Source: Alphaproteobacteria bacterium (GTDB lineage: Bacteria; Pseudomonadota; Alphaproteobacteria; RF32; CAG-239). From it: a stretch of DNA of 64,000 nt. A program made the position numbers and the translations under genes. The stretch lies in the NCBI GenBank assembly GCA_017501665.1, contig JAFVWM010000043.1, forward strand, positions 24,541-88,540, written 5' to 3'. The stretch's first letter is position 1, and the number at the start of each line of letters is the position of its first letter. Under the pieces are notes generated by a model. It was not told where the DNA came from. It saw only the letters and a program-made list of their open reading frames with translations, and did not search any database. This document shows, piece after piece, positions 4,510-24,594 of this stretch.

Positions 4510-5718
4510 TTATTTGTTATTGCGTATTTTTTCCTCATCAATAAGAATTCTTGCATGGGGTTCATTATCTATTTTAATAGAATTCCAATTTTTCCAACCA
4601 GCTTGTTTCGCAACAAAATCAAGCATTTTAGAATGTTGTTCACCTGTTTCTCTTTTTAATTTTCTGGCTTTTTGTTTCAACATTTCTATATAAATAGTTG
4701 ATGCACTTTTTTGGAATTCGGGTAATTTGTTATATATTTGTTTTATACATAAATCAGAAACACTCATAAAATATAATTCTTTATCTGGAAAAATATTTTT
4801 TAATTCTTTTATAATTTCACCATTATTACTTGAAACAACCAGACCGTCAGAAAAAACAGCATATTTTGCAATATCAGGATTCATTTCATTTCTTTTGTAA
4901 TCAGGATTTGTAACGGTTATACAATGACGATTTTTAAAAAAACTATTAACTTCTTTATTTATATTTTCTATTTTATCTATATCTTCTAATGGTAAAAACC
5001 ATTCAAATTCTTCTGCCTTTTTATAAATTGAATTTATCAAATCTTGTGAAATATATTCAATATTACATAAAATATATTCTTGTGAATATTTAGAAAGTAT
5101 ATTCTTTATTTTTTTACTTTTTTCTTTATTTTTTTCTACTTTGTAATCATTTGAAACAAGGACTTTTCCATTATCAAAAAAAGCCACATATTCACGCAAT
5201 TCTGCAGGTAAAGCATCATTTTTAGAAGCTGTCAATAATATACTGTTATTTGCAAAACATTCTTCAATAAAGCTATCTAAAGAAGGTAATTCTTCTACAT
5301 ACAAATCAGTTTTATAAGAATAATTTATAAGAGCCTGCTCAGATATAAAACGCAACATTTCACTATAAGTAAAATAGTCCATTTGTGTTTGTGGGGCATA
5401 TTCATTTATAACAGTTAAATTATTAGCCCTAAGCAACTGATATATTTTTTGTAATTTCTTATAATCTTTTTTTGCATCACAACGATGTATTAAGGTACCA
5501 TCAGAAAAAAAGTGAAAATCAGGATTATATTTACTTATAGGTAATTTTGCTGTTTTTGATCGAACGCGAATATTTTTTGATTTAAATTCTTTTTCTAATT
5601 CTTTTACATGTAAAAAAGCAGACATAGATTCCAAAGGATTATATGTCAAACAAACGCTGTTTTTAAACAAACGCAAAATAGTTTCATGATTGAGGGAAGT
5701 TTTGATAGTATCAGTCAT
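4510..5718 (-). CDS. Hypothetical 402-aa protein with an internal duplicated motif (FFSDGTLIH and VFSDGLVVS). No family recognised.
   Basis: Strong RBS aaggag 9 nt upstream of the ATG. Long ORF in an AT-rich genome. No recognisable catalytic motifs. Confidence 0.6.
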   Translation of the reverse strand: MTDTIKTSLNHETILRLFKNSVCLTYNPLESMSAFLHVKELEKEFKSKNIRVRSKTAKLPISKYNPDFHFFSDGTLIHRCDAKKDYKKLQKIYQLLRANNLTVINEYAPQTQMDYFTYSEMLRFISEQALINYSYKTDLYVEELPSLDSFIEECFANNSILLTASKNDALPAELREYVAFFDNGKVLVSNDYKVEKNKEKSKKIKNILSKYSQEYILCNIEYISQDLINSIYKKAEEFEWFLPLEDIDKIENINKEVNSFFKNRHCITVTNPDYKRNEMNPDIAKYAVFSDGLVVSSNNGEIIKELKNIFPDKELYFMSVSDLCIKQIYNKLPEFQKSASTIYIEMLKQKARKLKRETGEQHSKMLDFVAKQAGWKNWNSIKIDNEPHARILIDEEKIRNNK

Positions 5719-5925
5719 AGTGTTAACTCCTTAGCGGGAATAATATTTGATGCCTGCCAGTCAAAAATCCCTTTTGCAAAGAGTTTAAACTATGTATAAA
5801 AATGGTTATTCCATCCGGATTCGCCTTAGGGCAGGCAACAAGCACTAACCAATGCTCTAAGAGACAATATACCATTTTTATAAAAGATAGTCAATAAAAA
5901 AAATAAATAATGAAAAAACAAAATA

Positions 5926-6582
5926 TTAAATAATGTTTAGTATAAAATTTTCAACATCTCGCATATCTTCAAAAATATTTTTGATACCAAGTTTTTTTAT
6001 GTCTTCCAAGAAGTATTTTTTACTATATTTAACAAAGGCAACAGGTATCATACCTGCTCTTTGTGCAGCTGTCAAACCGGCAACAGAATCTTCAATAACT
6101 ATGCAATCTTCAGGTTTGAATCCCATTTTTTTTGCAGCCAATAAAAATATGTCAGGTTCAGGTTTTCCTTTTATTACCATATCAGAGGTAAAAACAGATT
6201 CATATGGAAAATATTTTTCAATATTTACTATTTTCATTTTATTTTTTGTTTTTTCCAAAATTCCGCCTGTTGCAATATATTGCTTTATTTTTTTATTACT
6301 AAAGATATTTTCAATATATTCTGTCAAAGCAAAACCGTTTTTTGCTTTATCTTTATCTCTTAATAAAGCATCTTTCCAAAAATTATTATTAACATTTATA
6401 CCTAATTTTTTCAAAACAATATCTTTATCTTTATCACTCATACCGCCGATAAGGCTCATTGCTTTCTCAAAAGTAAAATCAATCCCTAAATATTCTTTTA
6501 ATAATTCAACTCGTGATTGTACCCATAATTTTTCTGTATCGGCAATAACGCCATCAAAATCCCATATCACTAATTTTTGCAT
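5926..6582 (-). CDS. HAD-superfamily phosphatase (beta-phosphoglucomutase/phosphoglycolate phosphatase-like)
   Basis: Motif I WDFDGVIADTE. Motif IV IVIEDSVAG. Confidence 0.75.
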   Translation of the reverse strand: MQKLVIWDFDGVIADTEKLWVQSRVELLKEYLGIDFTFEKAMSLIGGMSDKDKDIVLKKLGINVNNNFWKDALLRDKDKAKNGFALTEYIENIFSNKKIKQYIATGGILEKTKNKMKIVNIEKYFPYESVFTSDMVIKGKPEPDIFLLAAKKMGFKPEDCIVIEDSVAGLTAAQRAGMIPVAFVKYSKKYFLEDIKKLGIKNIFEDMRDVENFILNII

Positions 6583-6759
6583 AAAAACTCCTTAAAAAAA
6601 ACGAGCTCGTATAAAGCTCACAGAAAGATTTTTTAACGATTCTATGATAGAATTATTAAAAAACAATAAAAACACGCTGTAGAGTCAAAAAACACCCTTT
6701 TTTATGCTTGCAACATTTTTTGAATAATTTTATAACTCTATGCAAAGAGGAAATAAAAA

Positions 6760-8091
6760 ATGACTAAACAAACAATTTATGCCTTATCTACGGTTTATGG
6801 AAAATCCGGTGTTGCTGTTATTAGAGTATCCGGAACATCATCACTAAAAGTCATAGAACAGATGACAGATATAAATATTAATGAAATAAAACCTCGTTAT
6901 ACATATTTTACTAATATCTATGATAATAATAAAAATATACTCGATAAATCTCTTGTAATATATTTTAAGGCACCTCATTCTTTTACCGGAGAAGATATAG
7001 TCGAATTTCATATCCATGGTTCAAAAGCTGTTATATCATCTGTTTTGGACAGTTTTTCTAAAATAGATGAGTTAAGACTTGCTGAGGCCGGAGAATTTTC
7101 AAAACGTGCATTTTATAATAATAAAATGGATTTAACCGAAGCTGAAGGACTGGCAGATTTAATAGATGCCGAAACATCAGAACAACAAAAATATGCTCTT
7201 CGCCAAATGGAAGGTAATTTAAGAGGTTTATATGATGGATGGAGAGAAGAGTTACTCAAAATATTAGCTCATTTGGAAGCTTATATAGATTTTCCGGATG
7301 AAGAACTACCTTCTGATATTATTGATAATATTCAAAACACTGTATTTAAAATAAAAGAAAGTATTTCAAAACATCTTTCCGATGGAAATATTGGTGAGCG
7401 TTTGCGTGATGGTTTCAGAGTTGTAATATTAGGCGAACCCAATGCCGGTAAATCATCATTACTAAATGCTATAGCTAAAAGAGAAGCCGTTATTGTTTCA
7501 GATGTTGCCGGTACCACCCGAGATGCGATAGACATTCACCTTGATATAAATGGATATCCGGTTGTTTTTACCGATACGGCCGGTTTAAGAAATACAGATG
7601 AAAAAATAGAACAGAAAGGTATAGAAATAGCGTATAAAAAAGCTCAAGATGCAGATGTCGTTATATGTTTATTTGATGGTTTAAAAAATATACCGCAAGA
7701 ATTTGAAAATATTGTAAAAAATCAAAAAATATATGTTGCTAATAAAGTTGATAAACTTAGTGATGAACAAAAAATTGATATTTTAAATAAAGGTTGTTTA
7801 CTTATATCTGCAAAACATAACCAAGGTGTAGATGCCCTACTTCAAAATATAAGTTCTAAAATCAAAGAAAAATTTACGTCTTCTTCCGGTGTTTTAATAA
7901 CCCGTCAAAGATACAGAGAAGCTTTGTATAATACAATAAACTATCTCTCAGAATTTGGTTTTAACAAAGAAATAGAATTATCTGCCGAGGATATAAGACT
8001 TGCTTGTCGCGAAATAGGAAAGATAACCGGCAGAATAGAAGTTGATGAAATATTGGATAAAATATTCGGATCATTTTGTATAGGTAAATAA
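6760..8091 (+). CDS. mnmE: tRNA modification GTPase MnmE (TrmE)
   Basis: G-domain GEPNAGKSSLLN, DTAG. C-terminal CIGK. Followed by mnmG. Confidence 0.93.
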   Translation: MTKQTIYALSTVYGKSGVAVIRVSGTSSLKVIEQMTDININEIKPRYTYFTNIYDNNKNILDKSLVIYFKAPHSFTGEDIVEFHIHGSKAVISSVLDSFSKIDELRLAEAGEFSKRAFYNNKMDLTEAEGLADLIDAETSEQQKYALRQMEGNLRGLYDGWREELLKILAHLEAYIDFPDEELPSDIIDNIQNTVFKIKESISKHLSDGNIGERLRDGFRVVILGEPNAGKSSLLNAIAKREAVIVSDVAGTTRDAIDIHLDINGYPVVFTDTAGLRNTDEKIEQKGIEIAYKKAQDADVVICLFDGLKNIPQEFENIVKNQKIYVANKVDKLSDEQKIDILNKGCLLISAKHNQGVDALLQNISSKIKEKFTSSSGVLITRQRYREALYNTINYLSEFGFNKEIELSAEDIRLACREIGKITGRIEVDEILDKIFGSFCIGK

Positions 8092-8092
8092 T

Positions 8093-9940
8093 ATGGAAAA
8101 TATTTACGATGTAATAGTAGTTGGTGGCGGACACGCCGGTTGCGAAGCAGCCGCTTCTTCAGCTCGTATGGGTGTAAAAACAGCTCTTATTACCCACAAA
8201 ATATCAACTATTGGCGAAATGTCTTGTAATCCTGCCATAGGAGGTCTTGGAAAAGGTCATTTGGTAAGAGAAATAGATGCTCTTGACGGACTTATGGGAA
8301 AAGTTATTGATAAAGCCGGTATTCAATTTCGTATGCTTAATGCATCTAAAGGTCCGGCTGTTCGAGGTCCTCGTGCTCAAGCAGATAGAAAACTTTATAA
8401 AAAATATATGCTTGAAGAACTACAAAAACAAGAAAACTTAGATATTATAGAAGCATCTGTAGAAGGTTTATTATTTACTGATGATAAAATAAGCGGTGTA
8501 ATATTAGCAGATGAAACATCTATTTTATCAAAAACAGTGATTCTGACTTCCGGAACTTTTTTAAACGGTGTAATGTTTACCGGACACAAAACTACCATAG
8601 GTGGTCGGGTAAACGACGTTACATGCACAGGAATAACACCGTATTTAAAGCAAAAAGGATTAAATGTAGGAAGATTAAAAACAGGAACTCCGGCACGACT
8701 AAACGGTAAAACCATAAATTGGGATATTCTTGATAAACAACAAGGTGACAGTGACTTAAAACCTTTTTCCTTTTTAACCAAAGAAATAACCACTCCGCAA
8801 ATAAGTTGTTATATAACTCACACTAACGAAAAAACACATAAAATAATCAGAGATAATTTCGATAAATGTGCCCTATTCTCAGGTCTTATCACCGGTGTAG
8901 GTCCAAGATATTGTCCCAGTATAGAAGATAAATTAGTAAAATTCGCCGATAGAACATCTCATCAAATTTTTTTAGAGCCGGAAGGTTTAGATACCGATGT
9001 TATCTATCCTAACGGAATTTCAACATCATTACCTGCTGATGTACAAGAGGCATTTATTCATACTATGAAGGGCTTGGAGAACGTTGAAATATTACAACCG
9101 GCATATGCTATTGAATATGATTATGTTGACCCAAAGGAACTAAACAATAAACTTGAATGTAAAAAAATACCTAATTTATTTTTGGCCGGACAGATTAATG
9201 GTACAACAGGTTATGAAGAAGCCGGAGCTCAAGGTTTGGTTGCCGGTATAAATGCAGCTTTAAAATCACAAAACAGCGAAAAAGAATTTGTTGTTGATCG
9301 TTCTGAAGCATATATAGGTGTTATGATAGATGATTTAATAACTAAAGGTGTTGACGAACCGTATCGAATGTTTACATCTCGTTCTGAATATCGTTTATTT
9401 TTGCGTTCGGATAATGCAGATATGCGCCTTACGGAAAAAGGTTATGAAATAGGTTGTGTAAGTGGTTTAAGATACGCTGTATTTAAAGATAAAAAACAAC
9501 AAGTTGATAATTTTAGACAACAGAGCAACAATCTTTTTATTTTACCGGCAGAACTTGAACAATATGGAATAAATATAAAAAAAGACGGTATAAAACGTTC
9601 CTGTTTTAATGTTATGTCTTATAATGATGTTTCACATGAAACAATATTGAAAATATGGCCTGAGTTATCTGAAATACCATATGAAGTATATGAGCAAATA
9701 GAAATCGAAGCTAAATATTCCGGTTATATAAAAAGACAACTTGCAGATATAGAAATATTCAAAAAAGATGAGAATCTTAAAATAAGAGAAGATATAGATT
9801 ATAATTTAATCGGAGGTCTATCTAGGGAAATGACAACAAAACTTTCTTCTGTTCGTCCTTCTACCATTGGTGAAGCTTCTCGTATACCAGGAGTTACTCC
9901 TGCAGCTATAACCGCTCTTTTAGGATATATAAAAAAATGA
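8093..9940 (+). CDS. mnmG: tRNA uridine 5-carboxymethylaminomethyl modification enzyme MnmG (GidA)
   Basis: FAD-binding VIVVGGGHAGCEAA. 615 aa. Conserved GidA C-terminus. Confidence 0.95.
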   Translation: MENIYDVIVVGGGHAGCEAAASSARMGVKTALITHKISTIGEMSCNPAIGGLGKGHLVREIDALDGLMGKVIDKAGIQFRMLNASKGPAVRGPRAQADRKLYKKYMLEELQKQENLDIIEASVEGLLFTDDKISGVILADETSILSKTVILTSGTFLNGVMFTGHKTTIGGRVNDVTCTGITPYLKQKGLNVGRLKTGTPARLNGKTINWDILDKQQGDSDLKPFSFLTKEITTPQISCYITHTNEKTHKIIRDNFDKCALFSGLITGVGPRYCPSIEDKLVKFADRTSHQIFLEPEGLDTDVIYPNGISTSLPADVQEAFIHTMKGLENVEILQPAYAIEYDYVDPKELNNKLECKKIPNLFLAGQINGTTGYEEAGAQGLVAGINAALKSQNSEKEFVVDRSEAYIGVMIDDLITKGVDEPYRMFTSRSEYRLFLRSDNADMRLTEKGYEIGCVSGLRYAVFKDKKQQVDNFRQQSNNLFILPAELEQYGINIKKDGIKRSCFNVMSYNDVSHETILKIWPELSEIPYEVYEQIEIEAKYSGYIKRQLADIEIFKKDENLKIREDIDYNLIGGLSREMTTKLSSVRPSTIGEASRIPGVTPAAITALLGYIKK

Positions 9941-10554
9941 GTAATTACCCAAGTATCAGTCAGGCTATATTTTTATGGCAAGAAAGTTTATCGAGTATTA
10001 CAGAAACAGCACCGGAACAAAATCAAATTGAGTATATATATCACACAACCGGAGTGGCCGATTCAGCCTATAAAATAGCTCAAAAGTGTAACTTAAATCC
10101 TTATAAGGCTTATGTGTTAGGTTTATTACATGATTATGGTAAAATACAAAATGAAAAGGTTACGGGTAAAGCACATTTTATTGTCGGGTATAACAAGATG
10201 ATGGAAGTCGGCTTTTCTGATGTAGCAAAAATATGTTTGTCACACAGTTTTCCTATAAAAGATTTTCTTTTTAGTGATTATATTTCTTATAATATAGAAG
10301 ATCTTACTGCGGCAAAAACAATACTATCAACACAAGATTATGACGATTATGATCGTTTAATACAATTATGCGATATGTTTTTTGAGGGTATGTATAAAGT
10401 ATCATACGAAACAAGAATTGAAGGTATATGTAAAAGATACAATCTTAAAGAAGAACACGTCAGAAGTATTAAAAAAGGTGCTATAATCAATAAAGAATAT
10501 TTTGATAATCTTTGTGGCTGTAATATATACGATTTATTAAACATAAGATACTAA
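9937..10554 (+). CDS. HD-domain hydrolase of the YqeK family, a possible bis(5'-nucleosyl)-tetraphosphatase
   Basis: IYHTTGVADSAYKIA...LGLLHDYGK, which matches the H..GVA...A / LHDxxK motif pattern of YqeK HD hydrolases. The start overlaps the mnmG stop (ATGA). Confidence 0.65.
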   Translation: MSNYPSISQAIFLWQESLSSITETAPEQNQIEYIYHTTGVADSAYKIAQKCNLNPYKAYVLGLLHDYGKIQNEKVTGKAHFIVGYNKMMEVGFSDVAKICLSHSFPIKDFLFSDYISYNIEDLTAAKTILSTQDYDDYDRLIQLCDMFFEGMYKVSYETRIEGICKRYNLKEEHVRSIKKGAIINKEYFDNLCGCNIYDLLNIRY

Positions 10555-10586
10555 AATATCCTGAGTTTTAATAAAAAGGATATTAG

Positions 10587-11411
10587 ATGCAAAAGTTCAA
10601 TTTTCATTGTCATACAAATTTTGGCGGTATTTTTGATGGTAAAAATACAGCCGAAGAAATGATTTTGTCATATGAAAATAAAGGTTTTGAAACTGTTGGT
10701 ATTAGTAATCATTGTATATATAGCAAAAGTTTCGAAAATCTTCAAAAATCAAGCGTAATGAATTTTTTTGATTTAGAAAAACTTATAGATTTGCATAAAA
10801 GGTGTTTTGAGAACATAGATAAATGTGCATCTAAACATAAAATAAAAGTACTAAAAGGCTTAGAAACAGACTTTTTTATGTCAAAGGACTGGAGAAACGC
10901 ATTTGAAAAAATAATAAAAGAATTAAATCCTGATTATATTATAGGATCTACTCATTTTATTAGAAGTAAGGATGAAAAGTTTTTATATAATTTATACCAT
11001 TTGAACTTATTACCTTCCAATACTTCCCAAGAAGAACTGGATGATATGGTTAAAAATTATTGGAATAATGTGATAGAATCGGTAAAAAGCGGATATTTTA
11101 CGTTTATTGCACATCCGGATTATTGTTGTCAGTTTAATTTGGCTATCGGCAAAGAATGGGATGATCTCAAACATATGTTTATAGAAGCCTTAAATACAAA
11201 CAAGACACCTTGTGAAATAAACACCAAGTGTATCAGATTAAATGGTAATCCTTGTCCTTCATGGAATATGATAAAAGAAATGATTAAAAAGGAAATACCA
11301 TTACTTATAAGTGACGATGCACACAGAATTGAAGATACCGGAGCATATTTTAATGAAACGGAAGATAAACTCATTGAATATGGTTGCAGGGTGAGGTTTG
11401 ATTGTTTATAA
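10587..11411 (+). CDS. PHP-domain phosphoesterase (TrpH/YciV/RNase AM-like or histidinol-phosphatase-like)
   Basis: N-terminal FHCHTNFGG (HxH). Internal H motifs (STHF, AHPDY). C-terminal SDDAHR, the typical PHP metal-ligand set. Confidence 0.7.
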   Translation: MQKFNFHCHTNFGGIFDGKNTAEEMILSYENKGFETVGISNHCIYSKSFENLQKSSVMNFFDLEKLIDLHKRCFENIDKCASKHKIKVLKGLETDFFMSKDWRNAFEKIIKELNPDYIIGSTHFIRSKDEKFLYNLYHLNLLPSNTSQEELDDMVKNYWNNVIESVKSGYFTFIAHPDYCCQFNLAIGKEWDDLKHMFIEALNTNKTPCEINTKCIRLNGNPCPSWNMIKEMIKKEIPLLISDDAHRIEDTGAYFNETEDKLIEYGCRVRFDCL

Positions 11412-11533
11412 TTTGATTCAAAATCAAGTGTTTAATTTATTGATTTAAAGTAATTTTTGGTGTGGTTGTAAAATATGTTTATAACTGTAATTTTTATGTT
11501 TTAAATTTTTTATTAAAAATATAAAAATAAATT

Positions 11534-12184
11534 ATGAAAAATTTTACAGAAAAATATAATGTTTCATGTGAAACAATTGACAGATTAAAAACCTACCAAG
11601 AGCTTCTTTTTGAGTGGCAAAATAAGTTCAATTTGGTAAGTAATTCAAGTTTGCAAAATGTCTGGGAAAGACATTTTGAAGATTCTGCTCAGCTTTTTGA
11701 GTTTATACCTAAGGATGCAAAAAAACTTATTGATTTTGGCTCCGGTGCAGGTTTTCCTGCTATGGTTCTAGCTATAATGTCACTTGAAAAGACACCGTAT
11801 TTAAAAATAACAATGGTTGAAAGTATTAAGAAGAAAACACTGTATTTAAATGAGGTTGCGTTAAAGACAGGTGTTAATGTTAATATTAAAAACGATAGAA
11901 TCGAAAAATTACCATTGGAAAAGTACGATGTGATAACTTCGCGAGCCATGGCTTCGTTGGTTGATTTGCTAAATTATGCATACCCTTTTTGTGTAAAAAA
12001 TACTGTTTGTATTTTTCCAAAAGGTAAAAATTATGCACTTGAATTGGCTGAGGCGCATAAAAAATGGCGTTTTAAATGCAACATAGTGCAAAGTAAAATT
12101 TCTGAAGAAGGAAAAATTTTAATAATAACCGATATTAAAAATAAAAAGGAGAAAACAAATGCCAAGAATTTTAGCCGTCGCTAA
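11534..12184 (+). CDS. rsmG: 16S rRNA (guanine527-N7)-methyltransferase RsmG (GidB)
   Basis: SAM-binding DFGSGAGFP. Position between mnmG and parA. Confidence 0.9.
   Translation: MKNFTEKYNVSCETIDRLKTYQELLFEWQNKFNLVSNSSLQNVWERHFEDSAQLFEFIPKDAKKLIDFGSGAGFPAMVLAIMSLEKTPYLKITMVESIKKKTLYLNEVALKTGVNVNIKNDRIEKLPLEKYDVITSRAMASLVDLLNYAYPFCVKNTVCIFPKGKNYALELAEAHKKWRFKCNIVQSKISEEGKILIITDIKNKKEKTNAKNFSRR
11560..11575. promoter_or_regulatory. parS: parS-like centromere site TGTTTCATGTGAAACA. It has one central mismatch to the TGTTTCACGTGAAACA consensus.
   Basis: Perfect 7-bp palindromic arms. Located at the 5' end of rsmG, immediately upstream of parAB. Confidence 0.6.
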
Positions 12185-12935
12185 TCGCAAAGGAGGGGTC
12201 GGAAAAACCACAACAACGGTTAATGTAGCTACAGCTATGGCTGCCGCAGGTAAAAAAGTACTTGTTATAGATTTGGATCCTCAGGGCAATGCATCAACAT
12301 CGATGGGTGTAGATAAAAAAGGTTCAATGCGTTCATCTTATGATATTTTATTAGGAAACTCGCGTCTTGCTGAAGCTGTTGTATGGACAGAAGTTCCTAA
12401 TTTCTCAATGGTTCCGTCTTCTCCGGATTTAGCAGCCGCAGAAATAGAACTTATAGATGTAGAAAAAAGAGAGTTTGCTCTTAAAAGAGCATTGTGTAAA
12501 GATGGTATAAATTATGATTATATCCTAATTGACTGCCCGCCTTCATTAAGTTTGGTTACTATAAATGCGCTTGTTGCCGCTGATGCTGTTATTGTTCCTC
12601 TGCAATGTGAGTTTTTGGCTTTGGAAGGTATATCTGATTTGATAAAGAACATAAATACCATCAAAAAGAATTTTAATCCTAGCTTAACACTTCATGGTGT
12701 TGTTTTAACAATGTATGACAAACGTAATAATCTAAGCCAAATGGTTGAAGAAGATGTTAGAAACTTCTTCGGTAAAAAAGTATATGAAACGGTTATTCCA
12801 AGAAACGTAAAAATATCCGAAGCACCTTCACATGGTAAGCCTGTTTTATTATACGATTTCAGATGTTCCGGATCACAAGCATATATCGGTTTAGCAAAAG
12901 AAGTATTAAAAAGAGAAAGAGAGTTGGTAGCATGA
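12159..12935 (+). CDS. parA: Chromosome partitioning ATPase ParA
   Basis: Deviant Walker A ANRKGGVGKTTT. 258 aa. Confidence 0.93.
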   Translation: MPRILAVANRKGGVGKTTTTVNVATAMAAAGKKVLVIDLDPQGNASTSMGVDKKGSMRSSYDILLGNSRLAEAVVWTEVPNFSMVPSSPDLAAAEIELIDVEKREFALKRALCKDGINYDYILIDCPPSLSLVTINALVAADAVIVPLQCEFLALEGISDLIKNINTIKKNFNPSLTLHGVVLTMYDKRNNLSQMVEEDVRNFFGKKVYETVIPRNVKISEAPSHGKPVLLYDFRCSGSQAYIGLAKEVLKRERELVA

Positions 12936-13918
12936 GTGAAGATATCAAAAAGAAAAAAAGTCTCGGAAGAGGTTTGGAAGCCCTGCTGGGTGAAATGAAC
13001 GAAGATGTATTAAATAATGAATTAAATCAAGTTAAATTAGGTGACGTAGCACTCATAAACGATATATATGTAAGCCCTTTTCAACCTCGTAAGGATTTTG
13101 ATGAAGATGCTATAAAATCGTTAGCCTCTTCAATAAAAGAAAAGGGAGTTCTTCAACCGCTTATTGTAAGAAAAACAGATAAGGGGTTAGAATTAATTGC
13201 CGGCGAAAGACGATTAAGAGCTTCAAAAATTGCCGGATTAACAGAGGTACCTGTTATTATAAAGGATTTTTCTGATGGTGAAGTTTTAGAAATAGCTTTA
13301 GTTGAAAATTTGCTCAGAGAAAATCTTTCCGCAATTGAAGAGGCTGAGGCATATCAAAAACTTATGGTTGATTTTTCTCACACTCAAGAAAAAGTTGCAT
13401 CTATTGTTGGAAAATCGCGCAGTTATATTGCTAATACTTTAAGATTGTTAACTTTATCGGACGATATAAAATCTTACATAACAAACGGAAAACTGACAGC
13501 CGGCCATGCCAGATGTTTAGTAGGTCTTGAAAATGCAAATTTTTTAGCCGAAAAAATCATAAAAGAAGAATTGAGTGTACGTCAGGTTGAAGAAATTGTT
13601 TCAAAGCAAAAAGAAACAAAAACACAACCTGTTGACAAAGATGAAAAAAATGCTAAAAAAGTAGTTAACCGCGATATATCTGATATTGAAAGAAAACTTA
13701 AAGAAAAACTAGGTTTAAGAATCAAAATAAGCCAAAATAAACAAGGTGGTGGAAAGGTAGTATTGCAATATGCATCGACTGCCGAGCTTGATATGATTAT
13801 TAATGTATTAGATCAAAAAAAACAGGTAGATTTAGGAATAAAGAACAATGTATTTAAAGATGACGAAGTTCAACAACAAACCAAAAATGATAAATTTTCA
13901 ATCAAATTTATAGAATAG
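12932..13918 (+). CDS. parB: Chromosome partitioning protein ParB
   Basis: LGRGLEALL N-terminus. GERRLRA ParB box. HTH. The start MSEDIKK overlaps the parA stop by 4 nt. The six-frame ORF extends further upstream, but that part is not real. Confidence 0.9.
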   Translation: MSEDIKKKKSLGRGLEALLGEMNEDVLNNELNQVKLGDVALINDIYVSPFQPRKDFDEDAIKSLASSIKEKGVLQPLIVRKTDKGLELIAGERRLRASKIAGLTEVPVIIKDFSDGEVLEIALVENLLRENLSAIEEAEAYQKLMVDFSHTQEKVASIVGKSRSYIANTLRLLTLSDDIKSYITNGKLTAGHARCLVGLENANFLAEKIIKEELSVRQVEEIVSKQKETKTQPVDKDEKNAKKVVNRDISDIERKLKEKLGLRIKISQNKQGGGKVVLQYASTAELDMIINVLDQKKQVDLGIKNNVFKDDEVQQQTKNDKFSIKFIE

Positions 13919-13929
13919 AAAGGCAAAAA

Positions 13930-14157
13930 ATGACTATATTAGATAAAATGTTAGAAAATTGCGAAAAAGCAGGGTATGCAACTACAAAAAATGTTCAAAA
14001 AATAGCAAATGCTAAACAAATGATGTTCGGTGAAAACGAATGGCATCGTTGTCCTTGTGATGGTCAAAATCCTGAGCGTTATTGTATATCAGAATTGTGT
14101 CGATCTGATATTGAGCGAGATGGTGAGTGCCATTGTCATTGTTATTGTAAAAAATAA
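13930..14157 (+). CDS. Small Cys-rich protein, resembling the ferredoxin-thioredoxin reductase catalytic subunit
   Basis: CPC...C..C...CHCHCYC cysteine clusters reminiscent of FTR-catalytic CPC/CHC motifs. Followed by a terminator. Confidence 0.4.
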   Translation: MTILDKMLENCEKAGYATTKNVQKIANAKQMMFGENEWHRCPCDGQNPERYCISELCRSDIERDGECHCHCYCKK

Positions 14158-14167
14158 AACATAAACA

Positions 14168-14196
14168 ACCTCGTATAAAAAATACGAGGTTTTTTA
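14168..14196 (+). terminator. Rho-independent terminator
   Basis: acctcgtat-aaaaa-atacgaggt followed by ttttt. Confidence 0.8.
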
Positions 14197-14264
14197 ATAA
14201 TATATTTACTTAAACTATTATAGACTGACGCTATAAATTTATAACCTTTAAGAAAGAGAAAAAT

Positions 14265-15236
14265 ATGGGTTTCATAAAAAAAATTATGTATGGTTCTGTT
14301 GCTATAATATTCATTTTAATGGGTGGTTTCGGTACCCAAAGCAACAGCATGATTTTGCAATTAGGCGGAATAGTCGGTCTTATATTCGGTGCGGTCATTT
14401 TATACATATTTGCCAAGATGGCGTGGAGAGCAATGGGGTGTATACCATCATTGTTGGTATTAATATTAATAATTGTATTTGTTTTGTTTGCGATTGGAGG
14501 TTTTAACGGGGGTATAAGCAGTGTTGGTCAAAATGTTCAAACATTTCTTGGGCAACAAACTAATTCTTCTTCAGAAAACATCGTAAATACAAGCATAGGG
14601 CAAGGTGAAGAAAATATTGTAGCTCCTAATGATAATAAAAAACAGGATGAAGGTGTAATAAACCTTATTGGTGAAGATCAACACCCAATAATAACAGAGA
14701 ATTTTTTATCCAAGCAAGAAAAGAAACAAGAAAATACATTTAATCCTATGAATTTTCCTGCAATAGAAGGTGTTTCCAGAGTCGTAAAAGGTGATACAAT
14801 AACTTTAACAGGAAGAATCGTAAAGTTATTTGGTGTTGCAGCTCCGGACATTTCTCAAACTTGTGCTGATAGTCAAGGTCGAGGTTATCGTTGCGGACAA
14901 CAGGCTATTTCTTGGCTAAACAGATGGTTGTCAGACAATACCTTAAGATGTCATATTATAAATGAAGACGATAGAGGTGTTTTGACAGGTGTTTGTATGT
15001 TGGGTCAATATGACATAGGCGCTGCCATTATAAATGCCGGTTGGGCGGTAGCAGATGTTAAACAGACGCAAATATACACTGCTTATCAAAATCAAGCATC
15101 TCAAAACAGAAGAGGTTTATGGCAAGGTAAATTTTATATGCCATGGGATTGGCAAAAGATAAAAGCTCGAAAAGCAAATATAAAAGTAATCAAACCCAAA
15201 AGCGAAAGAAAATCAGTGTGGTCCGGCTTATTTTAA
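14265..15236 (+). CDS. Membrane-anchored thermonuclease (SNase-like) family protein
   Basis: Three N-terminal TM helices. C-terminal SNase motifs: VVKGDTITL, RIVKLFGVAAPD, RRGLWQG. Confidence 0.7.
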   Translation: MGFIKKIMYGSVAIIFILMGGFGTQSNSMILQLGGIVGLIFGAVILYIFAKMAWRAMGCIPSLLVLILIIVFVLFAIGGFNGGISSVGQNVQTFLGQQTNSSSENIVNTSIGQGEENIVAPNDNKKQDEGVINLIGEDQHPIITENFLSKQEKKQENTFNPMNFPAIEGVSRVVKGDTITLTGRIVKLFGVAAPDISQTCADSQGRGYRCGQQAISWLNRWLSDNTLRCHIINEDDRGVLTGVCMLGQYDIGAAIINAGWAVADVKQTQIYTAYQNQASQNRRGLWQGKFYMPWDWQKIKARKANIKVIKPKSERKSVWSGLF

Positions 15237-23358: not shown

Positions 23359-24594
23359 TTAAAGTTTAAACCAAGCAGACGGGTTTATAGGCTGGTTGTT
23401 TTTTCTAATTTCTATGTACAATTCACTTTTGCCATCAGAAGGCATTACTCCGATCGGTTCACCAGCCAATAACATTTGTCCCAATTCAACATTAAGTGTT
23501 TCCAGTCCGGACAACAATGACAAATAACCGTCACCATGTTCAATAATAATCATGTTTCCATATCCTCTGAAAGGACCGCTGAAAATAACATTACCGTCAA
23601 AAGGAGAAATTACCTGAGCCTGATTTCTGGAGGCTATTGTAATGCCTTTCGCGGATATTCCTGTTGCTTTTTCTTCACCATATTCGGTAATAATATTTCC
23701 TCTTGCGGGCAAAGGTAAATTTCCTTTGGCTTTTTCAAAACCCGAAACCACATTCGTTATAGTCGTTTTTTCGTATTTAATCAAGTCATCAGACAGTTTT
23801 TCCTCTGACATTCTTCTTAGAGCATCTTCTTCCTTGCGTTTTTTTTCTCGTTCTTTTCTTTCGTTTTCAACACGCTGTTTTTCCAATTTTGCCAATAAAT
23901 CTCGCAAATCTTGAGCCTGAGAGGCAAGTTTATCTACGTTTTTCTTTGCTTTTTCCGATTTTATCTCCACCAAATTGCGCAAAGAATGTTTTTGCTTTAA
24001 CAAAGTGTTTATCCGCTTGTGTTCTTCTTTTATGACAATTTTTTGTTTTGATATTTCTTTTATTTGTTGTTTTATTCGGTTCTTTTTATTTTTAATGCTG
24101 AGAAGATTGTCTCTTAAATCGTTTGCACGAGATTCCAAGTGAGGTATTGTTTCTCTCAAGATCATAGCACTTCGTATAATATCAACAGGATTTAATGGTT
24201 GGACTAATAGAGATTCTGTCGGTTTAAGAGCTAAATTTTGCAAAGCGGATATGGTTTTTATAAGGTTTTTGCCTTCATTGTCAAAATTGTTTTGTGTTAA
24301 CAATAAATCTTCCTCCAAAGAGGCTAATTGCTTTTCCATTTTTGATAGTTTTTCTTCATTGTTTTGTAAGTGTCTTGCCGTCTGAATCATTTTTTTACTG
24401 ACCTCAGACATTTCCAAAGAAATTTGAGTTGCTTGAGCTTGAAGTTTTTTGTGTTCCATACTTTTCTCAAACACTTGTTGTTCAACTTCTTTCAGTTGAG
24501 CATCAGACACTTGAACAGCATCTGCGGTGGTAGAGTGCCAAAACAAAACCACCGCAAATAGAACACTGTATTTAAACGCTGTTCGAAAGTTCAT
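23359..24594 (-). CDS. M23 (LytM) peptidase-domain protein with a long coiled coil (EnvC-like murein hydrolase activator)
   Basis: Signal peptide. Extended heptad or K/E-rich coiled coil. C-terminal M23 domain (IIIEHGDGYLS). Confidence 0.8.
   Translation of the reverse strand: MNFRTAFKYSVLFAVVLFWHSTTADAVQVSDAQLKEVEQQVFEKSMEHKKLQAQATQISLEMSEVSKKMIQTARHLQNNEEKLSKMEKQLASLEEDLLLTQNNFDNEGKNLIKTISALQNLALKPTESLLVQPLNPVDIIRSAMILRETIPHLESRANDLRDNLLSIKNKKNRIKQQIKEISKQKIVIKEEHKRINTLLKQKHSLRNLVEIKSEKAKKNVDKLASQAQDLRDLLAKLEKQRVENERKEREKKRKEEDALRRMSEEKLSDDLIKYEKTTITNVVSGFEKAKGNLPLPARGNIITEYGEEKATGISAKGITIASRNQAQVISPFDGNVIFSGPFRGYGNMIIIEHGDGYLSLLSGLETLNVELGQMLLAGEPIGVMPSDGKSELYIEIRKNNQPINPSAWFKL

Follow-up and report, generated by a model that had tools for sequence, protein, structure and literature searches.

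A variable array of HD and PHP phosphohydrolase genes between mnmG and rsmG in uncultured gut Alphaproteobacteria

Why do the genes of two metal-dependent phosphohydrolases stand between mnmG and rsmG-parAB, and do they serve the tRNA modification enzymes encoded next to them? The question arises from a 64,000-nt stretch of alphaproteobacterial DNA (positions 24,541 to 88,540 of contig JAFVWM010000043.1, assembly GCA_017501665.1; hereafter the window), in which a first-pass annotation, made from the letters alone, had described an HD-domain protein of 205 amino acids (aa) and a PHP-domain protein of 274 aa (HD and PHP in what follows) in the gap between these genes. The arrangement was confirmed: the coordinates of the open reading frames (ORFs) are exactly as first noted, the HD start codon overlaps the stop codon of mnmG as ATGA, PHP follows 32 nt 3′ of HD, and the ligand motifs that had been quoted (H36, H65-D66 and K69 of LLHDYGK in HD; HxH, H and DxH in PHP) are all present. 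Because HD has homologues down to E = 1e-131 and PHP down to 1e-188, and because the catalytic residues are conserved, we conclude that both ORFs are real genes.

We found that the synteny of HD and PHP is real and old and has been inherited vertically in uncultured Alphaproteobacteria of the gut and rumen that form one clade, with ‘Proteobacteria bacterium CAG:495’ and the UMGS genomes of ‘uncultured Azospirillum sp.’ among its members. For the role of the pair we propose, with a confidence that stands at about even, that HD and PHP are accessory metal-dependent phosphohydrolases of the cytoplasm, specific to this lineage, handed down at the 3′ end of mnmE-mnmG and acting in two steps.

Distribution of the pair and variation of the array

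A genome scan seeded with the PHP alignment yielded 80 species-representative loci, with which the proteins of the window were compared by tblastn. All 80 come from gut, rumen or faecal metagenome-assembled genomes (MAGs) of uncultured Alphaproteobacteria, labelled Alphaproteobacteria bacterium, Proteobacteria bacterium CAG:495, ‘uncultured Azospirillum sp.’ or Candidatus (Ca.) Enterousia, and the HD and PHP relatives that carry a source name are likewise assigned to uncultured Alphaproteobacteria or Proteobacteria. The comparison of synteny that the first-pass annotation had called for bears out the arrangement, with PHP linked to mnmG and/or rsmG in 60 of the 80 loci and at least one HD gene in 56 of these 60. 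Furthermore, 11 related species-level loci have the same 4-nt start/stop overlap with mnmG. Two closer copies (L029 and L066) are among the 20 unlinked loci; the others are distant relatives, 32-36% identical, and six of these are labelled Ca. Enterousia. Around two further distant relatives (P0196 and P0215) and around L029 there are unrelated housekeeping genes and no his genes.

Across the loci, the identity of HD and PHP drops in step with that of mnmE, mnmG, rsmG and parA, so that mnmG identities of 94, 81 and 77% go with PHP identities of 67, 56 and 46%, respectively. Because the identity of the pair tracks that of the flanking core genes, we conclude that it was inherited vertically. 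Whether the two genes always occur together had also been asked, and they do not: the pair is not obligate, because four loci linked to mnmG/rsmG contain PHP only and stand-alone HD relatives occur elsewhere without PHP.

The content of the gap is variable. ORF extraction between mnmG and rsmG gave zero to three HD genes followed by one to four PHP genes, the commonest forms being HD-PHP, as in the window, and HD-HD-PHP. Clustering divided the 71 HD copies into three orthogroups (A with 44 copies including that of the window, B with 18 and C with 9) and the 68 PHP copies into two (A with 57, again including the window, and B with 11). Identity between orthogroups is 33-36%, which argues for old duplications followed by differential loss. 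The metal ligands are nevertheless complete in 71/71 HD and 68/68 PHP full-length gap copies, and the paralog groups vary beside the active-site motifs: residue 69, which follows HDYG, is K, E, R or Q, and residue 212 is N or S.

Some arrays hold additional genes. The array of L055 consists of HD, a MurA-like gene and four PHP genes, and that of L094, another alphaproteobacterial MAG, reads mnmG, NUDIX, MurA-like, PHP, HD, HD, rsmG; a 138-aa ORF and a flavodoxin-like gene were also seen in the latter. The MurA-like protein is a divergent enolpyruvyl transferase of 473-475 aa (7715-9142 in both L048 and L049, 6893-8320 in L055 and 4110-5531 in L094) that scores 253.7 bits on TIGR01072 against a cut-off of 392.7 and retains the P-G-G-C loop. 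Together with the NUDIX genes, it gives hints of a nucleotide-sugar-type pathway. A literature search on modules of HD, PHP, NUDIX and MurA returned nothing relevant. In three loci PHP is broken into two or three partial ORFs, with HD intact (L011, ~10001-10828; L068, 10001-10828; L094, 5541-6359), which may reflect pseudogenisation or an assembly or frameshift error in the MAGs.

Relationships of the two proteins

PHP matches PF02811 with 45.9 bits (cut-off 26.4). Eight ligands (H7, H9, D17, H42, E93, H123, H176 and H246) are invariant in 108 relatives and a ninth, D244, is kept in at least 90% of them, and all nine are present in every one of the 68 gap paralogs. Its score on the HisJ family model TIGR01856 is 88.9 bits (cut-off 90.2), on PRK07328 92.3 against 202 and on the HisJ equivalog NF005996 56.9 against 133; some of its orthologues are named HisJ family by NCBI. 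The PHP family profile matches the HisJ of T. thermophilus (2yxo, E = 1.6e-25), the HisK of Listeria (3dcp, E = 1.8e-19) and the histidinol phosphate phosphatase (HPP) of L. lactis (4gc3, E = 3.1e-10), and the predicted fold is of the HisJ type. PHP domains of PolX and YcdX are clearly less similar to it than the HisJ enzymes are, and it has no polymerase domain. Judged from its sequence, then, PHP is a HisJ/HisK-family protein and no exotic PHP.

The metal site agrees with that of a HisJ/HisK enzyme residue by residue: H9, H11, D17, H42, E81, H109, H154, D228 and H230 of L. lactis HPP correspond to H7, H9, D17, H42, E93, H123, H176, D244 and H246 of PHP. Y157, R160, Y161 and R197 of the L. 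lactis enzyme are reportedly substrate contacts, with R160 said to bind the phosphate. In the profile alignment these four fall on Y179, Q182, F183 and K214 of PHP. R197 is not conserved in 2yxo or 3dcp either, and at the position of R160 the T. thermophilus and Listeria enzymes have K and the distant PHP relatives have HLDLPKK. The exchange of R160 for Q182 is only a hint about the substrate of PHP.

PHP could still be a plain histidinol phosphatase. On this account it would be the HisJ/HisK histidinol-phosphate phosphatase of the clade, a housekeeping gene that came to lie after mnmG by chance, and HD would be an unrelated neighbour. The family assignment fits such an account, which we nonetheless consider unlikely. 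PHP is just 16-20% identical to the L-histidinol-phosphate phosphatases 2yxo, 3dcp and 4gc3, it carries Q182 where these have R or K (again, only a hint), and it is found beside HD after mnmG in tandem arrays of up to four intact PHP paralogs, in near-constant company with HD paralogs. Apparent breakage of PHP in L011, L068 and L094 also counts against a housekeeping role, with assembly error as a possible cause. No his gene lies near any of about 95 loci, a weak point given the small genome coverage; likewise, E. coli HisGDCBHAFI found no match in the 1.7 Mb of the window and all loci, which at ~20 kb per genome is too little to conclude from. Finally, distant members of the PHP family are kept in Ca. 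Enterousia, and Enterousia genomes of <1 Mb have been reported to be without amino-acid biosynthesis (PMC12306168).

HD matches PF01966 with 42.1 bits (cut-off 22) and TIGR00277 with 30.7 bits (cut-off 27.6), and among curated models it passes the generic HD and HDIG models only. Its ligands H36, H65, D66, H80, H103 and D146, which make up the extended pattern H..HD..H..H..D, do not vary among 90 relatives, nor among the 71 gap paralogs. The first-pass annotation had assigned HD to the YqeK type. Like YqeK, the symmetrical hydrolase of diadenosine tetraphosphate (Ap4A; 8jja, 8wmy and BH1327 2o08), HD is a single-domain HD protein of ~200 aa with the motif H..LLHDY(G/A)K and the ligands H..HD..H..H..D, and YqeK is its best match among solved structures; a predicted model of HD was also compared against structures of the Protein Data Bank. 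Membership in the YqeK family fails, because HD reaches 20.5 bits on TIGR00488 against a cut-off of 70.15, with a match limited to residues 34-108, and because its best sequence match of known structure, 8jja (E = 4.9e-6), covers residues 31-76 only. Similarity over the full length to a solved YqeK was not found. ‘YqeK-like’ is accordingly best kept as a fair lead for HD, and our best guess is that HD acts in the hydrolysis of nucleotides or dinucleoside polyphosphates. A stricter version, in which HD is a functional equivalent of YqeK that splits Ap4A symmetrically and PHP dephosphorylates the downstream product, shares the likeness in motif and size, runs against the same scores, and seems to us quite unlikely.

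HD recurs beside other phosphatases

Relatives of HD are numerous. A profile search of 1.84 billion representatives returned 576 at E≤1e-10, of which 137 reach E≤1e-30, and the distant ones all have generic names. Multi-domain relatives include NUDIX-HD, NT5C-HD (NT5C being a HAD-type 5′-deoxynucleotidase), HD-DHH/DHHA2 and HD-AAA_33 kinase fusions. At the level of neighbours, NUDIX genes adjoin HD in L093 and L094, a HAD hydrolase adjoins HD on the opposite strand in L098, and in Lachnospira eligens ATCC 27750 (37% identity) and Bacillus bombysepticus pBb (31%) the gene directly after HD encodes a HAD hydrolase, the two HAD proteins being homologous to one another. A search with P0255 led to the HD-B paralog group of the same clade, and contexts outside it came from the weakest matches only.

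The HD proteins of the uncharacterised Firmicute pairs and of the NT5C-HD, NUDIX-HD and HD-DHH fusions share a subfamily with HD of the window (31-37% identity or profile E≤1e-35), and each has a phosphomonoesterase or pyrophosphatase as its partner. They differ from the pair of the window in that the partner is HAD, NT5C, DHH or NUDIX instead of PHP and that mnmG is not linked. A recurring theme is thus observed, in which an HD of this family lies beside, or is fused to, a phosphomonoesterase or pyrophosphatase of varying superfamily. The HAD hydrolase gene 5′ of mnmE in the window (5926-6582, − strand) was considered as an equivalent of the Firmicute partner and set aside, the similarity being at the level of motifs only.

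The Bacillus bombysepticus relative (L104, NZ_CP007513.1 100808-107275) lies within an apparent amino-sugar cluster with genes for a class III aminotransferase, a GlmU-like acetyltransferase, a Gfo/Idh/MocA oxidoreductase, a TIM-barrel protein, HD, HAD and an MFS transporter. We take this cluster to resemble kanosamine-type (ntd/kab) operons.

Because the HD family recurs beside or fused to phosphomonoesterases or pyrophosphatases, we suggest a two-step model for the pair. HD, with a predicted binuclear H..HD..H..H..D site, would act on a nucleotide-type substrate and break a phosphodiester or phosphoanhydride bond in it; candidate substrates are a nucleoside or deoxynucleoside triphosphate (NTP/dNTP), a nucleoside diphosphate-linked (NDP-X) compound or a dinucleoside polyphosphate. 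PHP, which is HisJ-like and has a predicted trinuclear site, would then remove the phosphomonoester that is left, and the paralogs would serve different substrates.

Several points weigh against this two-step reading in addition to the possible role of PHP in histidine synthesis discussed above. PHP stands without HD at the four linked loci already mentioned, and some HD relatives, among the contexts sampled, are alone with no phosphatase neighbour. HD is also fused to GNAT, GDSL and peptidase S51 domains, a misfit with a pure nucleotide role. The scheme of two consecutive steps is inferred from neighbours and fusions, and the plausible membership of the pair in the mnmE-mnmG operon from gene spacing and the lack of a predicted terminator. 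Furthermore, a scan seeded with PHP would miss arrays that contain only HD.

A bolder proposal would make the HD/PHP arrays, together with the NUDIX and MurA-like genes of some relatives, an undescribed nucleotide or nucleotide-sugar processing pathway peculiar to these gut Alphaproteobacteria, with a different substrate for each HD-PHP pair and a functional coupling to mnmG, for example in the salvage or detoxification of xm5U-type nucleotides from tRNA turnover. We give it a small chance of being right.

Position of the array in the mnmE-parB block

The features of the locus are collected in Table 1. We found no terminator-like site on the + strand within 6760-14167, and one long transcription unit that includes HD and PHP is therefore plausible. 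An Rfam scan of 5700-14400 at E≤1 gave no match to a regulatory RNA in or around the block.

Table 1. Features of the mnmE-parB block and its surroundings in the window.
Feature	Position	Strand	Basis
mnmE, tRNA U34 modification GTPase, first of the co-directional block	6760-8091	+	Pfam TrmE_N, MnmE_helical, MMR_HSR1
mnmG (gidA)	8093-9940	+	Pfam GIDA E=1.5e-168, GIDA_C_1st, SAM_GIDA_C
ATGA overlap of HD start (ATG 9937-9939) and mnmG stop (TGA 9938-9940)	9937-9940	+	read in sequence
HD-domain (HDIG-type) phosphohydrolase, 205 aa, orthogroup HD-A	9937-10554	+	Pfam PF01966 E=1.2e-10
AAGGA, Shine-Dalgarno-like, 6 nt before the PHP ATG, in the 32-nt HD-PHP spacer	10576-10580	+	read in sequence
HisJ/HisK-family PHP phosphoesterase, 274 aa, orthogroup PHP-A	10587-11411	+	Pfam PF02811 E=1e-11
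TGTTTATAA, conserved non-coding 9-mer in the 122-nt PHP-rsmG spacer	11476-11484	+	spacer alignment
rsmG (gidB)	11534-12184	+	Pfam GidB E=2.8e-40
parA	12159-12935	+	Pfam annotations of identical genes in L001; ORFs
parB	~12932 (gene-caller start) to 13918	+	Pfam annotations of identical genes in L001; ORFs
First terminator-like + strand hairpin 3′ of mnmE	14167-14191	+	terminator-like hairpin prediction

The spacer between PHP and rsmG (11412-11533) is conserved with a mean column identity of 78% in an alignment of eight species, which exceeds the conservation of the flanking proteins (just 55-87% identical). In 53 of 62 loci its 9-mer TGTTTATAA lies at the same offset, ~58-60 nt 5′ of the rsmG ATG. 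Upstream of this 9-mer, the blocks GATTCAA and GTTTAA were also noted in the spacer. The spacer is probably, on this conservation, an internal promoter or operator of rsmG-parAB. If it is such a control region, the array would sit at the 3′ end of the mnmE-mnmG unit, and additional genes there would be harmless to their surroundings. The site just 5′ of the control region would thus be permissive for added genes, the array would be expressed through read-through and the start/stop overlap, and the linkage to mnmG would reflect a permissive site and no role in tRNA modification.

The alternative that the pair works with MnmE, MnmG and RsmG, either in processing tRNA or rRNA ends or in supplying or removing a metabolite for xm5U34 synthesis, extends one raised by the first-pass annotation. 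It draws on the position of the pair inside the block, on the overlap with mnmG kept in 11 species and on the placement between mnmG and rsmG conserved in 60 genomes. The tie to tRNA modification comes down to this position; distant HD and PHP relatives lie in unrelated contexts and, among the contexts sampled, relatives from outside the clade never lay beside mnmG. We hold this alternative to be very unlikely.

A reading of the pair as a cassette for defence or second-messenger signalling that was acquired horizontally and uses a strongly expressed operon, also proposed at first, is barely credible and was rejected: HD and PHP domains are known in some defence and cyclic-nucleotide systems, the G+C of PHP (0.25-0.28) is slightly under that of its neighbours (0.31-0.36) and copy number varies, but PADLOC returned nothing meaningful (weak Cas3-HD motif matches for HD at E≥7.6e-5 and none for PHP), 2.9 million viral contigs held no HD relative and only PHP relatives 21-23% identical, plasmid matches are at most 37% identical with ordinary metabolic or regulatory neighbours in the four contexts inspected, the HD sequence has no GYP motif, no sensor, ATPase or effector partner genes were found at the locus, and the locus is stable in at least 60 species, diverging in step with its flanking core genes.

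Three further ORFs near the block were noted. Directly after parB lies a Cys/His-rich ORF of 75 aa (13930-14157, + strand; CPCDGQ...CHCHCYCKK) with no Pfam family, which is kept as a 75-79-aa gene in L001, L005 and L094 and is followed by the hairpin of Table 1. Farther 3′ lies the gene of a 323-aa protein (14265-15236, + strand) that has hydrophobic segments near its N-terminus and a weakly matching staphylococcal-nuclease (SNase) domain. Relatives keep this gene 3′ of parB as well, and tsaE and an HPr-kinase-C-like gene come next. On the other side, between rho and the HAD hydrolase gene, an ORF of 402 aa (4510-5718, − strand) has no family match except a weak Glyoxalase_8 tail. Because it is present in the near-identical L001-L003 and absent at the same place in L005, it is a narrow-range insertion.

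By their sequences, the parts of the array belong to known superfamilies, namely a HisJ-family PHP and an uncharacterised HDIG subfamily. Our understanding of tRNA modification and of defence is unchanged by these findings, and their value lies in annotation and in the biology of an uncultured gut lineage. A variable paralog array within a very stable core operon makes a tidy case of a permissive site for insertion and duplication. If the two-step model is true, HisJ-family labels in these gut Alphaproteobacteria would not mean histidinol phosphatase by default, and the pair would open a first way to the function of an HD subfamily that is sizeable but uncharacterised (576 cluster representatives, E≤1e-10).

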